The notes beneath the pieces are model-generated. The model ran no database searches and had not been told where the DNA came from. It was given only the letters and a program-made list of their open reading frames with translations. Below, piece after piece: positions 93-49,280 of a stretch of DNA of 54,866 bases. The stretch is from Candidatus Pacearchaeota archaeon (GTDB lineage: Archaea > Nanobdellota > Nanobdellia > Pacearchaeales > GW2011-AR1). Location: positions 1-54,866 of the forward strand of contig JACQLK010000010.1 in the NCBI GenBank assembly GCA_016204145.1. The letters are read 5' to 3'. Made by a program: the position numbers and the translations under genes. Within the stretch, counting starts at the first letter, position 1, and each line of letters starts with the position of its first letter.

Positions 93-638
93 TTGATAAA
101 AGATTATCTGTATTGTCCTAGAATGTTTTATTTTAAGCATGTGTTAAATCTTCCCTATTCAGATACTGCGAAAACAATAAAAGGCAAAGAAAAAGAATCT
201 TTGTTCAAAAAACAGACATCGAGAAATAAAATTGTTAAAGACAAACATGAACCAAAATTCGTGAAAAAATATGGGATTTACTTGGATGACGGAGAATTGT
301 CCACAAAGCTGGATTGCATCATGATTGATGAAAATAATAAAGCCGCTTTTCCATTGCAGCTTAAAAATACGAAGACCCCAAAATCCGTTTACAAAACCCA
401 GAGGTTGCAGCTTATGCTAGAATCGTTCCTCATAGAAAAAGTTTTGAAATATAAATCTCCATATGGTTACATAAGATACGCCTTGTCAAATGAATTGATT
501 AAATTAGATTTAAGAGACAAAGGGGAATTATTTGACATTATAACTAGGATTAAAGAACTGATTAAAAGCGAAATATTGCCTCCATCCACAAAATATAAAA
601 AAAGGATTGTTGATAATTGTTACAGGAGATTTTACTGA
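93..638 (+). CDS. cas4: Cas4-like RecB-family nuclease, apparently degenerate
   Basis: The N-terminus (IT)ATLIKDYLYCPRMFYF matches the Cas4 N-terminal Cys motif. KLDCIM...PLQLK resembles the RecB D...ExK motif but has Q in place of E. A QxxxY-like QLMLESF follows. Only one C-terminal Cys (DNCYRRFY-stop) replaces the usual CxxCx5C. The frame is open from 63, so the TTG start at 93 is uncertain. The stop overlaps the effector ATG (TGATG). Confidence 0.6.
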   Translation: MIKDYLYCPRMFYFKHVLNLPYSDTAKTIKGKEKESLFKKQTSRNKIVKDKHEPKFVKKYGIYLDDGELSTKLDCIMIDENNKAAFPLQLKNTKTPKSVYKTQRLQLMLESFLIEKVLKYKSPYGYIRYALSNELIKLDLRDKGELFDIITRIKELIKSEILPPSTKYKKRIVDNCYRRFY

Positions 639-2557
639 TGGGAGAAAAAGTTCAACAAACTATATTCTGTGAAAAATGTGACAAGGAGATAAAAATTCAA
701 AAAAACTATCTTGGAAAAAAAGATGCAATAGAGAAAACAAGAGCCAAGCACGAAAAAAAAGAGCACGCATTAATTACAGGAGTTAAGTTTAAGATATATC
801 CTAAAAAAGAAGAATTAAGCAAACTAAATGACTATTTTAATGACTATGCAAAAGCCATAACTTTTGCTGCCAGAGTTATAGATGAACTAAAATCACCTTT
901 CAAATTTTGCGGGTTATCTATAAGTTGGGTTGAGGATTTAATAGAAAAATATCCAGATAAAGAAGATGTAAAAAAAATTGTAATAAAATATGGATATAGT
1001 CCCAAGCAATTAGAATATGCTTTGGAAATGATTTCAAATAAAAAGAAAGAAAAATATTCATACATTCAGGATAAATGTAACTTTTGTGATTTAGAAACAG
1101 AAATCTTTTATTTAAAATCGGATGGAGGAGTTAAAATATGCAAGCAATGTTATCTTAAAAAATTTAGTGAACAAGGATTGCTAGAAAAAATTTATGCCGC
1201 GAAAGGCAGAAGAGTTAATCCAAGTTTTAATTTATTCAACGTAACAAAAAATCTGTCTAGAACACATAATAATTACATAATCAAAGAAGCCATCCAACTT
1301 CTAGACGCTCTCAAAAAACAAAGAAGAGAAAGAATAGTGAGATTGGCTAAAGACAGAAGAAGGTTAAGACAATTTGAAGAAATGCTTGATGAAGAAAAGA
1401 GATATGAACTTCCTATGAAAGATAGGCAAAGAGAAAAAAGATTTATTCATATAAACCAAAAAGAAAAAGCTTCAGAATTGAGAGGATACACTCACCGAGC
1501 AATAATCGGTAAAATAAAGATTTTAACGAGAAACATCCAAAGAGAACAAAAGTCATTAAATAAAAAATCTCCGATTAATTTTAAAGGCAGTAGAATTAGA
1601 TTGCCCCCCTCTGTAAAATTTAATAAAGAAAAAAGTGAAGTTTCAGTTACAATATCTGATAAGATATCTAAAAAGTTTGAATTTAGTGGTTTAGGGGTTG
1701 CCAATAAACACGGAAAAAGGTTTTTTGAAGAAAAGCTGAAACAAATAGAAGAAAGTAAACCAAAATATTCATATCTTATTAGAAAATTAAAACCAAAATT
1801 TATAGCATTAACAAAAAAAAGGCTAAAAGAGTTGGTTAATGAAAAAGACGATATATACGATTATTATTTACAATATACTTTAGAAGTTTTGCCTGAATTT
1901 AAAGGGAGAGATTATAAAGGCGTTTTAGGTATAGACCGAGGGATAAATACATTAGCTTGTTTAGTTTTTTTGGAAAAGGATAAAAAAATTCCAACATCAG
2001 TAAAATTCTTTAGTGGTAAAGGACTTTTAGAATTTAAGAATAGCAGAAGAAAACAATTATATTTCCTAAAGGGAAAACATAATAAGAAAAAGAAGCAAAA
2101 GAAGATTAGGTTAATAGAACCACGAATTGACCAGATATTACATAGGGTATCTGAACAAATAGTATCGCTGGCTAAAGAGAAAAATGCTGCGATATTCTTG
2201 GAGGATTTACAACAGCCAAAAAAATCAAGATTCAGACAAAAAAGAAGAGTTAAATATAAGTTAAGCCAATTCAACTTCAAAACATTATCTGATTATATTG
2301 AATACAAAGCAAAAAGAGAAGGAATTTTAGTGGATTATGTTCCTCCCGAATTTACGAGTCAAAACTGTTCTCGCTGTGCCATGAATGGAGATATTCACGC
2401 AGATACTCAACGACCTTATAAAAAACCAAATTCAAAAAAACCTTTCACTTCTTTGTTCAAATGCAATAAATGTCAGGTAGAACTTAATTCAGATTATAAC
2501 GCTGCATTTAATATTGCTCAGAAAGGTTTAAAAGTTTTGAATTCCAGTCAATCTTGA
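638..2557 (+). CDS. cas12f: Miniature type V CRISPR effector, Cas12f/Cas14-like (TnpB-derived RuvC nuclease), 639 aa from the ATG at 638
   Basis: The C-terminal half has the split RuvC plus zinc-ribbon layout of TnpB/Cas12: GIDRGINTLA (RuvC-I Asp), AAIFLEDLQ (RuvC-II Glu), CSRC...CNKC zinc ribbon, and NSDYNAAFNIA (RuvC-III Asp). The N-terminus has VKFKIYPKKEELSKLNDYF (TnpB-like WED start) and two further Cys clusters (CEKC..H..H and CNFC-x18-CKQC). It sits between cas4 and a CRISPR array on the same strand. Confidence 0.8.
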   Translation: MGEKVQQTIFCEKCDKEIKIQKNYLGKKDAIEKTRAKHEKKEHALITGVKFKIYPKKEELSKLNDYFNDYAKAITFAARVIDELKSPFKFCGLSISWVEDLIEKYPDKEDVKKIVIKYGYSPKQLEYALEMISNKKKEKYSYIQDKCNFCDLETEIFYLKSDGGVKICKQCYLKKFSEQGLLEKIYAAKGRRVNPSFNLFNVTKNLSRTHNNYIIKEAIQLLDALKKQRRERIVRLAKDRRRLRQFEEMLDEEKRYELPMKDRQREKRFIHINQKEKASELRGYTHRAIIGKIKILTRNIQREQKSLNKKSPINFKGSRIRLPPSVKFNKEKSEVSVTISDKISKKFEFSGLGVANKHGKRFFEEKLKQIEESKPKYSYLIRKLKPKFIALTKKRLKELVNEKDDIYDYYLQYTLEVLPEFKGRDYKGVLGIDRGINTLACLVFLEKDKKIPTSVKFFSGKGLLEFKNSRRKQLYFLKGKHNKKKKQKKIRLIEPRIDQILHRVSEQIVSLAKEKNAAIFLEDLQQPKKSRFRQKRRVKYKLSQFNFKTLSDYIEYKAKREGILVDYVPPEFTSQNCSRCAMNGDIHADTQRPYKKPNSKKPFTSLFKCNKCQVELNSDYNAAFNIAQKGLKVLNSSQS

Positions 2558-2569
2558 GTACCTTTGATG

Positions 2570-2850
2570 AGATGCTATTTGGTAAAATGAATAGCGTTGA
2601 GGTAACGAGATGCCACAAGCTATAGCAGTAATATTCTGCACTATTTTCTACGTAATGTTTAGAATAGGGCAAGTGGAGAAAAGCAAAGGGCGGCGTTGCA
2701 CCGCAGTTAAAGATTCGAAATAATCTAAAAAACTTAGCTGTTGAAAAGAAAGCATTAGCAAGTATAAGTAAGCGGCAATTATTGGTCTCGGCTGATAAAG
2801 TTTACGGATTAATCTTTAATCCCGTTCTGACTTAAAAGTCAGAATTCATT
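2570..2850 (+). ncRNA. Candidate tracrRNA (boundaries approximate)
   Basis: Non-coding spacer between the effector and the array. It contains an 18-bp anti-repeat at 2813-2830 and several local hairpins: gctatt/aatagc near 2573-2596, gcgg/ccgc near 2690-2705, ggatt/aatcc at 2806-2822, and ttctgac/gtcagaa at 2825-2844. Same strand as the effector and crRNA. Confidence 0.45.
2813..2830 (+). other. Anti-repeat segment complementary to the CRISPR repeat
   Basis: tctttaatccc|gttctga pairs antiparallel with repeat nt 10-16 (tcagaac, 7 bp) and nt 20-30 (gggattaagga, 11 bp including one G-U). Repeat nt 17-19 (aaa) bulge out. Confidence 0.6.
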
Positions 2851-2935
2851 TAAAAACAAAATGCAAAAATCACACATTTCAAAAATCTTGGAAAATTTTG
2901 CTTCCTGCGGTCTTTTAGAGCCGAAATTTTTGGCT

Positions 2936-4578
2936 ATTTCACACTCAGAACAAAGGGATTAAGGAATGCAACTATCCCGATGCGCTCTACCCTCAGCCGG
3001 TTATCTCATTTCACACTCAGAACAAAGGGATTAAGGAATGCAACTCCCATTACCGCATTCAGTGCAAGGGTGTCCGTCTATTTCACACTCAGAACAAAGG
3101 GATTAAGGAATGCAACTTCTTTTGAGATAAATTTGTATGGGTAATTTAAGATATTTCACACTCAGAACAAAGGGATTAAGGAATGCAACCGTTTGGGTAA
3201 AATGCTTTTAAAGTGGCAGTTGCTTATTTCACACTCAGAACAAAGGGATTAAGGAATGCAACTTCCTTTGGTTCAGGCGAAGGAATAGTTATTCGGTATT
3301 TCACACTCAGAACAAAGGGATTAAGGAATGCAACAGATTTTCCTTTCAAAACTTCCTCAATTATCTCCTATTTCACACTCAGAACAAAGGGATTAAGGAA
3401 TGCAACAATGTCAAGATGGAACAATCATTGAACTTCAAAATATTTCACACTCAGAACAAAGGGATTAAGGAATGCAACGCTTACGGCGACATATTGCGCC
3501 TTGACGTCGAGGCAATTTCACACTCAGAACAAAGGGATTAAGGAATGCAACAGAATTACAATCCCATCCGGCAATTTCCGGAATGCCATTTCACACTCAG
3601 AACAAAGGGATTAAGGAATGCAACTATTTTTTGCCGCCGGATATTCTTACGGATTTGTCATTTCACACTCAGAACAAAGGGATTAAGGAATGCAACAATG
3701 TCAGAGTGTATTCATAAAAACATAAATGAAAAATTTCACACTCAGAACAAAGGGATTAAGGAATGCAACTGTTCGAGCCCAATGTCGGCAACACGAACTT
3801 TTTGCGGATTTCACACTCAGAACAAAGGGATTAAGGAATGCAACATAAATTCAAAATCCGAGATGTCAATCGTCGTCGTGATTTCACACTCAGAACAAAG
3901 GGATTAAGGAATGCAACTAATAATGCCGTAGCGACGACGACGGGACAGGCACAAATTTCACACTCAGAACAAAGGGATTAAGGAATGCAACTAATTAACG
4001 ACGACGCAGAGCCAGAGGACGATTGGAAATTTCACACTCAGAACAAAGGGATTAAGGAATGCAACAATAACATTATTTATCTGCGTGATGATTGAATTCA
4101 GATTTCACACTCAGAACAAAGGGATTAAGGAATGCAACAAAACGAGCTCGCCGGATTGGGAACCGAGGTCGGATATTTCACACTCAGAACAAAGGGATTA
4201 AGGAATGCAACCGGAACAATCAACTCCGCCACAAGCGGAAGCGTTGACGATTTCACACTCAGAACAAAGGGATTAAGGAATGCAACTATATTCTCGCTTC
4301 TTCTTCAATATCAAACATTTTTATTTCACACTCAGAACAAAGGGATTAAGGAATGCAACTTTTCCCTGCTGTGCTGAATCCCTGGCAAGGGGCTCCATTT
4401 CACACTCAGAACAAAGGGGTTAAGGAATGCAACCGTCGTTGGAGCATAAAATAGAAGATGTTGCCAAAATTTCACACTCAGAACAAAGGGATTAAGGAAT
4501 GCAACCAATGCGTCAAGGATTGCCTGTTTCTCGGAGATCAAATTTCACACTCAGAACAAAGGGGTTAAGGAATGCAAC
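2936..4578 (+). CRISPR. CRISPR array, 23 x 37-nt repeats (ATTTCACACTCAGAACAAAGGGATTAAGGAATGCAAC), 22 spacers of 35-38 nt
   Basis: Repeats counted by eye start at 2936, 3008, 3080, 3153, 3226, 3298, 3370, 3442, 3515, 3588, 3660, 3733, 3808, 3881, 3955, 4029, 4102, 4175, 4250, 4323, 4397, 4469 and 4542. Repeats 21 and 23 carry A>G at repeat position 23 (GGGGTTAAGG). All spacers are unique. Confidence 0.97.
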
Positions 4579-4588
4579 TAATTAAATT

Positions 4589-5125
4589 TTACAATTTCGC
4601 AAACTCTTCAATCATCTTCTTATTCCTTACCTCTGGATGAAATAAAACTCCGTAAATCGGCTTTGTCTTGTGTTTTATCGCCTGCGGAATTTTGCCGTCG
4701 GTGAATTGCTCAAATTCCTTCGGCAATGTCATGTAATTGTTATGTAAATGATAAACTTCGTGTTTTCCAATTAACGATAAAAATTCGCGATTAAATTCCT
4801 CGTTGTAAAACCCGATTTCTGTTTCTTTTTTTATTTTTCCGCCGAAAGCCAAAGAAATAATCTGCATTCCGGCGCAAATTCCGAGAAGGGGCTTTTCAAA
4901 ATACTTAATCCATTGAAACCTGTCAAGATGCTTCAAGTAATCGCAATCTTTCAACGAAGTGCCACAAATTATAATTTGGTCTGCTTTCCTCAAATCGTTT
5001 TCATTAATTTCTTTGTAATGCCTTGTAAAAAATTTTATCTTATTTTTTTTCAATATTTTTTCAATCGGCTTTACAAATTCATAGTAATGCAGCTTTTCCT
5101 TGCAGACGTTTATTATCAGTATCAT
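4589..5125 (-). CDS. Class I glutamine amidotransferase (GMP synthase subunit A-like)
   Basis: LLGICAGMQ (nucleophile Cys) and GVLFHPE (His/Glu of the triad). The 178-aa size fits a stand-alone GATase subunit. Confidence 0.7.
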   Translation of the reverse strand: MILIINVCKEKLHYYEFVKPIEKILKKNKIKFFTRHYKEINENDLRKADQIIICGTSLKDCDYLKHLDRFQWIKYFEKPLLGICAGMQIISLAFGGKIKKETEIGFYNEEFNREFLSLIGKHEVYHLHNNYMTLPKEFEQFTDGKIPQAIKHKTKPIYGVLFHPEVRNKKMIEEFAKL

Positions 5126-21240: not shown

Positions 21241-21334
21241 TGGGCACGGAGGGAATCGAACCCCCATCTCCTGGGCTCTCCGCAAATTTTATTCTGCGCT
21301 GGAGCCAGGTAGTCTGCCACTAGCCTACGCACCC
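21241..21334 (-). tRNA. tRNA-Trp(CCA) with a 23-nt canonical intron (21276-21298)
   Basis: The reverse complement reads GGGTGCG..GGGGGTTCGATTCCCTCCGTGCCCA. There is a 7-bp acceptor stem (two G-U pairs), a T arm, and a 5-bp anticodon stem CCTGG/CCAGG. A bulge-helix-bulge motif gives the spliced loop CUCCAGC. An oligo-T tract follows the 3' end. D-stem pairing is weak. Confidence 0.75.
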
Positions 21335-45791: not shown

Positions 45792-48700
45792 ATGCAAAAC
45801 ATTATTAGAAAAAAAGTCGACGAAATAAAATTCGCTTTGCTCAGTCCGGAACAGATTAAAAAAATCTCGTGCGCGAAAATCGTGACGCCGGAATTGTACG
45901 ACATTGACGGATATCCTGTCGACGGCGGTTTGATGGATTTGCGTCTTGGAGCGATAGACCCCGGAGTAAGATGCAGAACCTGCGGAGGGCGTTTGAAAGA
46001 ATGTCTTGGTCACCCGGGAAGAATAGAACTTGCAAGGGCGATTTTCCATTTGAAATACATTCCGATAATTGAAACCGGTTTGAGATGCTTTTGCCACGAA
46101 TGCGGAAAGCTTCTTCTCTCTGACGCGGACTTGAAAAAATATTCCGCAAGCGAAAGGGCGAAAAAAGCGAAAGACGCGAAAAGATGCCCCCATTGCAACG
46201 CCGCCCACGAGAAAGTCAAGCTGGAAAAGCCGACAAGTTTTTATATAGGAAAAAAACGCCTTTTCCCGACGGCAGTCAGAGAAATTCTTGTTAACATAAA
46301 AGACGAGGAATTGAAAAAAATAGGAATCGATCCGGAGAGCTGCAGACCCGAGTGGGCTGTTTTGACGTTCCTTCTCGTTCCTTCCGTGACAATAAGACCG
46401 AGCATAATTCTCGAATCCGGAGAGAGAAGTGAAGATGATTTGACTCACAAACTCTCGGACATAATAAGGGCAAACCAGCGACTCTGGGAAAATTTGAACG
46501 CTGGAGCGCCTGAAGTTATCATCGAGGATTTGTGGGATTTGCTTCAATTTCATATAACCACTTTTTTCGACAACAGCGTCTCCAAAATTCCTCCCGCAAG
46601 ACATCGAAGCGGACAGCCGCTGAAAACAATAACCGAAAGGATAAAGGGGAAAGAGGGAAGAATAAGAAAAAACCTCGCCGGAAAAAGAGTCAACTATTCC
46701 GGAAGAACCGTAATCTCGCCGGATCCTTCAATGGAATTGAACGAAGTCGGAATTCCATTTGAAATCGCGAAAATCGTCACCGTCGCGGAAACAGTCAACG
46801 ATTCAAACATGGATTATTTGAAAAAGTTGATTGAAAACGGCGAAAAATATCCGGGCGCGAATTATGTCATTCGCCCCGACGGAAAAAAGAAGAAAATAAC
46901 TCCGGAATTGAAAGAGGAAATAATGAATGAAATCTCTCCGGAATACAAAGTTGAAAGGCACTTGCAAAACGGCGACATTGTCTTGTTCAACAGACATCCT
47001 TCGCTGCACAAAATGAGCTTGATGGCGCATGTCGTAAAAATCCTTCCGGGAAGAACTTTCCGTTTGCATCCCGGAACCGCATTCCCTTACAACGCGGACT
47101 TCGACGGGGATGAGATGAACATACACTCTCCGCAAACCGAAGAGGCGAGGGCCGAGGCGAAAATACTTCTCGATGTGAAAAAAAATTTAATGTCTCCGAA
47201 AAACAACACGAACTTTCTCGGCTGTTCGCAGGACGCGATAACTGGAAATTATCTTCTCGGAACTTCCGAATTTTCCGCGGATTACGCAAATCAACTTCTT
47301 TACAAAACGGGAATAATAAAGCCGGTCTCAAAGAAAAACATTTCCGGATTTGAGTTGTTCTCAAACATTCTTCCGAAAATAAATTTCTCAAACGGTTCCG
47401 TGAAAATACAGGACGGGGAAATTTTAAAGGGAAAAATAGACAAGACGCTGTTCGGGCAGGAAGACGGCGAATTGATAAGGGAATTGGACAAAGAAATCGG
47501 AAGGGACGAAACGGTGAAGACGATAAAGCGCGCGTTCGACTTGGGAATAAATTACCTGACAGACAGGGGAATAACAATTTCCCTGGAGGATTTGAATTTG
47601 AGCAGGAATCCGATTGCGCAGGGCGAAGAAATAATAAAAAAAGCCGAGAAGAGAACGGAAGAACTTATTGAGCTGTACAACAAGGAGGACTTTGAAATAA
47701 TTCCCGGAAAAACAAAAGAAGACACGAGGGAAATAAAGATCCTGCAGGTGTTGAACGAAGTAAGAACAAAAGTCGGGGAAATCGTAAAGCAGGAATTTCC
47801 TTCGGATAATCCGGTGAATCACATGATAATTTCAGGAGGCGGAGGAAACATTCTCAACATCACTCAGATTGCGTGTTGCGTCGGACAACAGGCGTTGTGG
47901 GGAAAAAGAATTGAAATAGGGTACAATCACAGAACGCTTTCATTTTTCAGAAAAGGGGAATTGTCTCCGGCGTCGAGAGGATTCATAAAAAGCTCTTTCA
48001 TGCGCGGTCTCAGACCCGATGAATTTTTCTTCGGCGCCATCACGGGAAGGGATTCCCTTATGGATACCGCTCTTAGAACTCCGAAATCCGGATATTTATA
48101 TCGGCGTTTGGCAAGCGCGCTTCAGGATTTGAAAGTTGAATACGACGGAACGGTGAGGGACAGCAACAATAGTATCATACAATACAAATACGGCTCCGAC
48201 GGCATTGACGTTTCAAAATTGCACTTGAACGGAAAAATAGAGTCAGGAGAAGCGATAGGAATCGTCACCGCGCAGTCGTTCGGAGAGCCGTCGACGCAGA
48301 TGGCGCTGAACGTTTTCCACTTTGCCGGCGTTCAGGAAATGCAGATTACCGCGGGTCTTCCTCGATTGATTGAAATTTTCGACGCAAGAAAAAAACCCTC
48401 GTCTCCGAAAATGGAAATATATTTGTCAAGGGACTATAACAATGAAAAAGAAGCGAGGGCGTTCGCGGAAAAAGTCAAGGAAGTGAAAGTCGCGGAAATC
48501 GCGTCCGAGATAAATGTAAATTTCAACGACAAAAACATTGATATAAAAATCGACAAAGAAAAGTTGAGGCATGCGCATATCGGAATAAAGACGGTTGTCG
48601 AGCGCTTGAACGAAGCGGGATACAAATCAAGGGAAAAAAGCGAATCGGTTGCGATAAGCGCTCCCGAATTGGGATTCAAAGAATTGTACAAATTGAAAGA

Positions 48701-49280
48701 AAAAATAAAAAAAGAAATAATCTCCGGAGTGAAGGGAATAAGCCAGGTCCTGATTGTAAAAAGGGACAAGGATTACGTCGTCACGACTCTCGGAACAAAC
48801 ATGAAAAAAATAATAACTTTAAAAGAAGTTGAAAAAAACAAAACAATTTCAAACGACTTCCATGAAATCGCCGGAATTTTCGGAATCGAAGCCGGAAGGC
48901 AATTGGTAATAGATGAAATCAATCGCGTTTTAAGCACGCAGGGGCTTGACATAAACATAAGGCATCTCGAGCTTGTCGCCGACGCAATGACAAACACCGG
49001 AGATGTGAAGGGAATAACAAGAATGGGAATCATCGCGCAAAAATCCTCGATACTTGCAAAAGCGACATTTGAAACGCCCGTGAAGCAATTTGTGAACGCG
49101 TCTGTAAAGGGAAGCAAGGACAAATTAACGAGCGTCGTCGAGAATATAATTCTAAACCAACCGGTTCCCGTCGGGACAGGGCTTCCGGGATTGCTTGTTA
49201 AAGTTGTCGGTCCGATGTCAAAGAAAGACAAGGACATGAAAACCGCGAAGAAAGAAATTGTGGAAAAAGTGAATGAATAA
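45792..49280 (+). CDS. rpoA: RNA polymerase largest subunit, A' and A'' fused in one ORF (Rpo1)
   Basis: A' motifs (zinc sites CRTCGG.. and CHECG, plus the catalytic YNADFDGDEMN) and A'' motifs (trigger loop GEAIGIVTAQSFGEPSTQMALNVFHFAGV) lie in a single uninterrupted 1162-aa frame. Confidence 0.95.
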   Translation: MQNIIRKKVDEIKFALLSPEQIKKISCAKIVTPELYDIDGYPVDGGLMDLRLGAIDPGVRCRTCGGRLKECLGHPGRIELARAIFHLKYIPIIETGLRCFCHECGKLLLSDADLKKYSASERAKKAKDAKRCPHCNAAHEKVKLEKPTSFYIGKKRLFPTAVREILVNIKDEELKKIGIDPESCRPEWAVLTFLLVPSVTIRPSIILESGERSEDDLTHKLSDIIRANQRLWENLNAGAPEVIIEDLWDLLQFHITTFFDNSVSKIPPARHRSGQPLKTITERIKGKEGRIRKNLAGKRVNYSGRTVISPDPSMELNEVGIPFEIAKIVTVAETVNDSNMDYLKKLIENGEKYPGANYVIRPDGKKKKITPELKEEIMNEISPEYKVERHLQNGDIVLFNRHPSLHKMSLMAHVVKILPGRTFRLHPGTAFPYNADFDGDEMNIHSPQTEEARAEAKILLDVKKNLMSPKNNTNFLGCSQDAITGNYLLGTSEFSADYANQLLYKTGIIKPVSKKNISGFELFSNILPKINFSNGSVKIQDGEILKGKIDKTLFGQEDGELIRELDKEIGRDETVKTIKRAFDLGINYLTDRGITISLEDLNLSRNPIAQGEEIIKKAEKRTEELIELYNKEDFEIIPGKTKEDTREIKILQVLNEVRTKVGEIVKQEFPSDNPVNHMIISGGGGNILNITQIACCVGQQALWGKRIEIGYNHRTLSFFRKGELSPASRGFIKSSFMRGLRPDEFFFGAITGRDSLMDTALRTPKSGYLYRRLASALQDLKVEYDGTVRDSNNSIIQYKYGSDGIDVSKLHLNGKIESGEAIGIVTAQSFGEPSTQMALNVFHFAGVQEMQITAGLPRLIEIFDARKKPSSPKMEIYLSRDYNNEKEARAFAEKVKEVKVAEIASEINVNFNDKNIDIKIDKEKLRHAHIGIKTVVERLNEAGYKSREKSESVAISAPELGFKELYKLKEKIKKEIISGVKGISQVLIVKRDKDYVVTTLGTNMKKIITLKEVEKNKTISNDFHEIAGIFGIEAGRQLVIDEINRVLSTQGLDINIRHLELVADAMTNTGDVKGITRMGIIAQKSSILAKATFETPVKQFVNASVKGSKDKLTSVVENIILNQPVPVGTGLPGLLVKVVGPMSKKDKDMKTAKKEIVEKVNE

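Follow-up and report, generated by a model that had tools for sequence, protein, structure and literature searches.

A predicted tracrRNA with a bipartite anti-repeat between cas12f2 and the CRISPR array of an archaeal type V-F locus

Few programmable DNA-cutting enzymes are as small as the Cas12f nucleases, and most of the gains made in engineering them have come from redesigning their oversized guide RNAs. [quoted passage not shown] In this system, for which PDB 7C7L and 7L48/7L49 (PMC8053092, PMC8763643) served as our references, the loop of the 5-bp stem 3 (nucleotides 78-83) makes one anti-repeat:repeat duplex, the other being made by the tracrRNA's 3' end (PMC8053092); in the single-guide RNA the element GGCUG-CUUGCAU-CAGCC faces a strand ending in GGAAUGCAAC (PMC12955468). 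Paired long and short repeat/anti-repeat stems of this kind are a general pattern, described for Cas12b, Cas12f1, Cas12g and Cas12l (PMC11246509). Within subtype Cas12f2, Karvelis et al. (2020) cloned the 'putative tracrRNA' regions of Mi1Cas12f2 (Cas14b4), Mi2Cas12f2 and AuCas12f2 together with the nucleases, and these loci cleaved DNA in E. coli lysate; the portions of that article on hand treat the region as a black box, for which no ends, structure or anti-repeat are given (PMC7229846). It is thus already known that Cas12f2 cuts DNA, whilst its tracrRNA is only a 'putative' region in the literature searched, where no structure for it was found (Harrington et al. 2018 lay outside that search). 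Here we analyse the 378-nt gap (positions 2558-2935) between a cas12f2 gene and the adjoining CRISPR array in a 54,866-nt stretch of contig JACQLK010000010.1 from a Candidatus Pacearchaeota archaeon, the whole of which is referred to below as the window.

With a probability of roughly 85%, we assign positions 2555-2852 on the + strand to the tracrRNA gene of a type V-F Cas12f2 (Cas14b) system with a bipartite anti-repeat, carried on an archaeal chromosome. The predicted RNA is about 290 nt long, with conservation across 22 aligned loci extending from approximately the cas12f2 stop codon to the TATA box of the array, and both of its ends are predictions. The effector encoded immediately upstream (638..2557, +; 639 aa) belongs to the Cas12f2 family, matching NCBIfam NF049972 (CRISPR_Cas12f2) with 703.2 bits over residues 48-635, compared with a curated cut-off of 450. 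It contains the Pfam Cas12f1-like TNB and RuvC domains, and solved Cas12f and TnpB chains are matched by its C-terminal half; unlike Un1Cas12f1, it resembles the Cas12f1 structures in that half only (E ~1e-9 to 1e-10). The array (2936..4578, +) consists of 23 repeats of 37 nt, ATTTCACACTCAGAACAAAGGGATTAAGGAATGCAAC, with spacers of 35-38 nt, and together with an adaptation gene (cas4, at 93-638) it gives the locus the composition of type V-F2. Its likeness to the loci of Karvelis et al. lies in the subtype and in the location of the region between nuclease gene and repeats (PMC7229846). RNA polymerase subunits B and A'/A'' of archaeal type are encoded in the window, and the host is therefore taken to be an archaeon.

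Relatives of the effector were gathered from genomes, metagenomes and Logan assemblies, and 30 loci (29 distinct; L001, L002 and so on) with effectors 30-86% identical to that of the window were kept, the nearest being from Pacearchaeota, Nanoarchaeota, Woesearchaeota and Aenigmatarchaeota assemblies. The usual layout among them is cas12f2, a gap of 310-410 nt and then 37-nt repeats ending in GGAATGCAAC, the exceptions being a few loci with a single repeat and several contigs that end within the first repeat. The single-repeat arrangement is seen in L122 (6300-6340), L126 and L086, in which cas12f2 and the tracrRNA region are followed by one repeat without an array; in L122 an SMC-like gene comes after it. 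The entire gap can be aligned across loci, from approximately the stop codon to the first repeat. A consensus structure was predicted with RNAalifold on the 16 closer loci, and pair counts were controlled by column shuffles (500) and by sliding the partners. Pairing with the repeat was assessed locus by locus (n=29), by joining the region of hairpin P3 (see below), the anti-repeat region and the locus's own repeat and counting the proposed intermolecular pairs.

The long anti-repeat, TCTTTAATCCCGTTCTGA, lies on the + strand at 2813-2830, exactly where a preliminary description of this DNA had located it, and the pairing proposed there with repeat nt 20-30 and 10-16, including one G-U pair and an AAA bulge, was reproduced (RNAduplex, -23.6 kcal/mol). 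Positions 2813-2823 pair with repeat nt 20-30 in 11 bp, of which one is the G-U; the GUUC at 2824-2827 can pair with GAAC (repeat nt 13-16) across the 3-nt AAA bulge on the repeat side, and 2828-2830 can pair with nt 10-12, making 7 bp with nt 10-16. The 18-mer is the sole match in the window at up to three mismatches (shuffle mean 0.12). Taken alone this single-sequence case is suggestive; the comparative data make it solid. Across the 29 loci, 88.0% of the intermolecular cells are paired, against 81.6% in shuffles and 27-43% with slid partners, and 49 cells are compensatory where shuffles give 20.2 (0/500 as high). The proximal 11-bp helix is 90.1% paired, with double changes at seven of its 11 positions, for example where repeat GGGATTGAGGA occurs with TCTTCAATCCC (L001) or AGAGTTAAAGA with TCTTTAACTCT (L082). 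Opposite GAAC or GAAU, GUUC is kept across the 3-nt bulge, and in L124-L126 a repeat GAAG is matched by CUUC in the tracrRNA, which compensates for GUUC:GAAC.

The region has one of the features expected of a tracrRNA gene, an anti-repeat encoded beside cas genes and array that co-varies with the repeats of 29 loci. The preliminary description had held that the idea would fail if homologous loci lacked conservation or covariation of the anti-repeat; covariation was seen. A long bulged duplex of the Cas12f type is likewise found at the 3' end of the RNA (11 bp plus GUUC:GAAC over the 3-nt bulge). In other loci it spans most of the repeat, whereas in the window its distal part is replaced by a hairpin, discussed below as hairpin 2. 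An inverted repeat that would engage part of the anti-repeat in cis, TTAAAGATT (2707-2715) with AATCTTTAA (2811-2819), was considered and rejected: the change of the anti-repeat in L001 and L002 is not followed by this partner, unlike by the repeat.

The consensus structure comprises 45 pairs in seven helices (P1a, P1b and P2-P6). Of its cells 96.1% are paired, compared with 83.0% in shuffles and 29-50% with slid partners; 111 cells are compensatory, against 29 in shuffles (0/500 as high), and these involve 28 of the 45 pairs. G-U pairs are frequent, and the tracrRNA is accordingly placed on the + strand, to which all coordinates of helices refer. The outer helix P1a (2559-2564/2599-2604) is changed on both sides at two of six pairs, whilst hairpin P1b (2571-2580/2589-2598) is compensatory at 10/10. 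P2 (2613-2616/2673-2676 and 2619-2620/2669-2670) has 100% of its cells paired and four of six pairs compensatory. The P3 hairpin, GCGG/CCGC (2690-2693/2701-2704), has a stem G-C pair in 22 loci that is U-A in six. The long-range helix P4, GAUUC/GGAUU (2712-2716/2806-2810; 98.8% paired, 3/5 pairs compensatory), encloses P5 (2737-2742/2771-2776; 5/6) and P6 (2780-2787/2790-2797; 4/8). Two hairpins that the preliminary description had seen upstream, at about 2573-2596 and 2690-2705, correspond to P1b and P3, and its expectation of a long structured RNA like those of Cas12f guides agrees with the seven helices and the predicted length.

In some loci only, the alignments show within P2 an insertion of ~48 nt with two small hairpins (2621-2668 in the window). 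It includes the sequence GCAG-UAAUAUU-CUGC, with a conserved loop UAAUNUU, and is present in the window, L121, L122, L124, L125, L085, L087, L006 and L005. As a separate observation, the other homologues are ~50 aa shorter than the window effector and the two relatives nearest to it.

Judged from the predicted fold, this RNA and the Cas12f1 guide RNA have a collinear architecture: both are long multi-stemmed RNAs with a long anti-repeat at the 3' end. The window RNA differs in being about twice as long and in having the three-way domain P4-P6 in place of the single stem 4 of Cas12f1. The repeats of the two systems share the 3' end GGAAUGCAAC. At L006 (4253 onwards), a Cas12f2-like locus with an effector 40% identical to that of the window, the repeats are one base off what we take to be the Un1Cas12f1 (Cas14a1) repeat, of which only the last 17 nt were compared with the printed single-guide RNA. 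Repeat types seem to be common to both sides of the Cas12f1/Cas12f2 boundary.

The second, short anti-repeat concerns the 3' end of the repeat, AATGCAAC, which the preliminary description had left unpaired. The P3 loop carries GUUGCA (2695-2700, +), which is complementary to the last six repeat nucleotides, UGCAAC, and this complementarity is held in 24/24 informative loci, with one G-U. By analogy, the resulting short duplex would be a close parallel of that of the Un1Cas12f1 stem-3 loop. In both, a short G+C stem (GGCUG/CAGCC there, GCGG/CCGC here) shows a loop containing UUGCA to an invariant repeat end ...AUGCAAC, although the pairing would be one base off, being GUUGCA:UGCAAC in the window and UUGCAU:AUGCAA in Un1Cas12f1. 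The bipartite pairing predicted here would also be shared, as a long bulged stem and a short pseudoknot stem of 5-7 bp beside the guide, with Cas12b, Cas12g and Cas12l (PMC11246509), which differ in their effectors and in their unrelated RNA sequences.

Each half of the long anti-repeat had been reported to be flanked by a copy of the repeat sequence with which it would pair, and both copies were found as placed (ggattaa at 2806-2812 and gtcagaa at 2838-2844). From these the preliminary description derived two adjacent hairpins in the free RNA, hiding both anti-repeat halves and both having to open for an 18-bp duplex with the CRISPR RNA (crRNA), as in a conformational switch. We consider such a switch improbable. 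Both hairpins do occur in the single-sequence minimum free energy (MFE) fold of 2556-2852, the second is conserved and overlaps seven anti-repeat nucleotides, and in 10 of the 12 loci of the repeat subtype to which the window belongs the anti-repeat is able to pair with repeat nt 10-16. Hairpin 1 (ggatt/aatcc), however, finds no comparative support: over 29 loci it is 68.3% paired against 67.6% in column shuffles, of which 199/500 are as high, with no excess covariation. Its 5' arm lies within the near-invariant motif GAC[AG]GAYYAAU, the GGAUU of which pairs with GAUUC at 2712-2716 as the co-varying P4. With its pairing at shuffle level and its GGAUU committed to P4, hairpin 1 was rejected.

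Hairpin 2 (2824-2832/2837-2845, +; 9 bp, loop 2833-2836) overlaps the distal 7 nt of the anti-repeat and is conserved in a manner that depends on the repeat. In loci with repeats that start with GTTGCAG or a similar sequence, most of the repeat 5' half is paired by the anti-repeat, which runs on, and there is no hairpin; in the 12 loci with repeats starting xTTTCAyA, including the window, this distal pairing is lost and GUUCUGAy folds instead with a downstream rUCAGAAy. The hairpin has 6-10 bp in 10 of the 12, and is weak or absent in L081 and L002. Over these loci it is 90.8% paired, against 86.5% in shuffles, with seven compensatory cells against 2.2 (0/500 as high), the changes falling mostly at apical pairs unconnected with the repeat. 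The competing intermolecular pairs stand at 71.7% against 71.2% in shuffles and show no covariation. In L001 and L002 the 5' arm has changed whilst the repeat has not, and in L001 the 3' arm has followed, which speaks against the two-hairpin switch. So does co-folding of the tracrRNA 3' segment with the repeat, a variant of a check that the preliminary description had itself suggested: the MFE structure retains hairpin 2 together with the 11-bp duplex in 10 of the 12 loci, by a margin of 0.6-7 kcal/mol. An intermolecular duplex reaching past repeat nt 10 was also considered and rejected, since 0-1 of the 12 loci pair at two of the extra positions and seven at the third.

Because both the covariation and the co-fold energies favour a closed hairpin, a state in which a persistent 3' hairpin adjoins an intermolecular duplex of 11 bp is likelier than one in which the hairpin must open, with dynamic exchange between hairpin 2 and the repeat duplex being possible. 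The proposed competition of hairpin 2 with the anti-repeat is real, and extends to 7 bp, but the hairpin is predicted to remain closed. Nor is there need to regard it as the relic of an inverted repeat copy, as had been offered as a further option: the position of its 3' arm is that of an AGAAT box, which is also conserved where the hairpin is missing, and this overlap explains the repeat-like copy.

What hairpin 2 does is a matter on which our readings are tentative. The xTTTCAyA subtype occurs in two effector clades that are only ~40% identical. In this subtype the tracrRNA may, in a proposal that we would ourselves rate as doubtful, have replaced the distal half of the duplex by a cis hairpin, the 3' arm of which imitates repeat nt 10-16. 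A continuous helix of ~20 bp (11 intermolecular and 9 intramolecular, stacked) would be formed all the same, and the repeat 5' half would be left single-stranded, altering pre-crRNA trimming in archaea without a duplex-specific processing RNase. This cis-hairpin variant is the most original aspect of the locus. The 3' hairpin over the distal anti-repeat is an addition relative to Un1Cas12f1, and no such hairpin is described for Cas12b, Cas12g or Cas12l in PMC11246509.

We likewise rate as doubtful the idea that hairpin 2 is solely a transcript-end element, i.e. a terminator or a block to 3' exonucleases without a role in the effector complex, its repeat likeness being a by-product of its overlap with the anti-repeat and with the AGAAT box of the array promoter; this is compatible with the assignment of the region as a tracrRNA gene. 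In favour of an end element, the hairpin is the last part of the conserved RNA and is followed directly by the TATA-like box of the array, and its 3' arm overlaps AGAAT; against it, the stem is followed by a short T run (UUCAUUU), a terminator scan of the + strand gave nothing there, and archaeal termination is not known to depend on hairpins. The long complementary region of Un1Cas12f1 is disordered and can be left out of a single-guide RNA (PMC8763643), which is in keeping with an end element, but hairpin 2 strictly accompanies one repeat subtype across two effector clades, pointing to a link with repeat pairing. Far less likely again is that 2824-2845 acts as DNA, e.g. as the operator of a dimeric regulator of the array promoter. 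Whilst the palindrome is near-perfect and overlaps the box of the array promoter that resembles a transcription factor B recognition element (BRE), its arms co-vary and have no fixed half-site sequence, the loop between them ranges from 4 to 8 nt by locus, and G-U pairs, seen at the closing position in 6/12, would read on the opposite strand as C-A mismatches.

Transcription of the RNA would be directed by a BRE/TATA-like element, GAAAGG-TTTAAAAG (2521..2534, +), inside the last cas12f2 codons. Within the codons for K-G-L-K/N at the end of the gene, GAAAGGTTTAAAWA is nearly invariant in 27/29 loci, and synonymous sites are frozen: TTA encodes the Leu in 27/28 loci, compared with a share of 46% in the rest of these genes, and GGT the Gly in 22/25, compared with 21%. 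Between this box and the point where the conserved RNA begins (GTAC/GTGC) the spacing stays at 29-32 nt, irrespective of the position of the stop codon; in L001 and L002, which have a longer C-terminal tail, the conserved RNA begins inside the open reading frame (ORF), before the stop codon. The element resembles an archaeal BRE/TATA promoter and would place the start at about 2555-2560. Its embedding in the cas12f2 coding sequence is reminiscent of the omega-RNAs that start inside tnpB. With these the RNA shares the arrangement of a guide scaffold directly 3' of the nuclease gene, on the same strand, starting at or inside the ORF end (PMC10097598), as illustrated by the putative promoter in the last codons of the window gene and by the RNA start before the stop codon in L001 and L002. 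The omega-RNA differs in that the guide is part of the same molecule, and it requires neither a separate crRNA nor pairing with a repeat (PMC10097598).

A second BRE/TATA-like element, AGAAT ... TTTAAAAA (2841..2856, +, with TTTAAAAA at 2849-2856), is a candidate promoter for the array, and it is the AGAAT box of this element that the 3' arm of hairpin 2 overlaps. Directly after the anti-repeat region, CTTTATAAA or a variant of it is found in all aligned loci, with AGAAT before it in most. The earlier reading of 2850-2935 as the leader is supported, and the stretch contains this conserved TATA-like box. In our annotation the leader spans 2857..2935 (+) and contains the motif ATGCAAAAA-N-ACATT(C/T)CAAAA (alignment A2 columns 401-423; 2857-2885 in the window), which is conserved in almost all loci and may be a promoter/initiator sequence or a leader element for spacer integration. 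The ATGCAA of the motif equals repeat nt 31-36, and its CATTCC complements GGAATG in most relatives, the window having CATTTC. At the other end of the array, the repeats at 4397-4433 and 4542-4578 carry A23>G (GGGGTTAAGG); they would still pair with the anti-repeat, as G-U, and their array-distal position is consistent with a leader at the cas-proximal end.

Similarity is unevenly distributed along the region. Between the window and L122 it is 90% in the tracrRNA body and 65% in the leader, and between L009 and L090 it is 88% and 64%, whereas between the window and L009 (effector ~39% identical) the body is at 52% and the leader at 73%. The leader-array module thus looks more similar across the two effector clades than the rest of the tracrRNA, and may, on this sequence comparison, have been exchanged between cas12f2 lineages. 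A scan for sigma-70 promoters and intrinsic terminators returned no promoters and, as its sole terminator-like match, the minus-strand reading of P3; as the host is archaeal, this result is irrelevant.

Several points weigh against the assignment of 2555-2852 as a tracrRNA gene. The consensus structure was predicted on the alignment on which it was scored, so that the pair counts are somewhat inflated; the margin over shuffles is large nevertheless. The single-sequence fold has only a slight advantage over shuffles (z = -1.94 for the + strand, -1.34 for the - strand), and about eight other 60-nt segments among 5393 reach -23 to -24.4 kcal/mol against the repeat, placing the anti-repeat in the top handful, not uniquely at the top, for which reason the duplex-energy scan was dropped as a stand-alone argument. 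Neither the short anti-repeat nor its target varies, so that conservation and analogy, and not covariation, are what speaks for their pairing; the hairpin 2 statistics come from 12 related loci; and both ends of the RNA and both promoters are ones that we infer. There is no clear oligo-T terminator after hairpin 2, and read-through into the array is possible. The most sceptical reading, that the region is only a 3' untranslated region or leader and its match to the repeat a chance one or a decayed repeat, can draw on the duplex energy not being unique and on Rfam, where no credible match was found for 2300-4700 at E up to 10, and where two tRNAs were the only matches at gathering score in the whole window. 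We find it barely credible: the anti-repeat co-varies with the locus's own repeat across 29 loci, covariation supports seven helices, and a decayed repeat would be expected in the repeat orientation, not as its complement.

In the mechanism that we propose, transcription would start near the cas12f2 stop codon, from the BRE/TATA-like element in the last codons, and would end in the T-rich stretch after hairpin 2. Covariation shows a fold of seven conserved helices, and complementarity and covariation point to two contacts with the repeat. At the first, 2813-2823 and the GUUC at 2824-2827 would pair with repeat nt 20-30 and 13-16; at the second, the P3 loop GUUGCA would pair with the last six repeat bases, beside the spacer, in a pseudoknot-like short duplex as in the Cas12f1 guide RNA. 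In the xTTTCAyA subtype, covariation and energies suggest that the distal anti-repeat folds with the downstream repeat-like segment into the 9-bp 3'-terminal hairpin at 2824-2845, which could stack on the 11-bp duplex and probably marks or stabilises the tracrRNA's 3' end just upstream of the array promoter. By homology, Cas12f2 would then bind the tracrRNA:crRNA pair, and the spacer would target DNA.

The cas4 gene (93..638, +) matches Pfam Cas_Cas4 with 33.5 bits (cut-off 22.7) and NCBIfam TIGR00372 (cas4) with E 8e-18 and 64.9 bits, slightly below the 65-bit cut-off. The gene order in relatives is cas1-cas2-cas4-cas12f2, from which cas1 and cas2 would be placed beyond the upstream edge of the window. 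An ORF of 1162 aa (45792-49280, +) matches RNA polymerase subunit A' with residues 3-817 and A'' with residues 807-1131, and the two subunits appear to be fused in it. A 94-nt tRNA detected by Rfam at 21241-21334 (-; 46.5 bits), without an ARAGORN call, is probably intron-containing, consistent with an archaeal host.

A covariation-backed structure provides a starting point for the design and trimming of a Cas12f2 single-guide RNA, with the seven helices, the two anti-repeats, the optional insertion of ~48 nt and the probable 5' and 3' ends as design inputs. The variant with the 3' hairpin suggests that the distal part of the repeat duplex can be provided in cis. In genome annotation, Cas12f2 loci of DPANN-type archaea could be recognised by the embedded promoter together with the conserved RNA.

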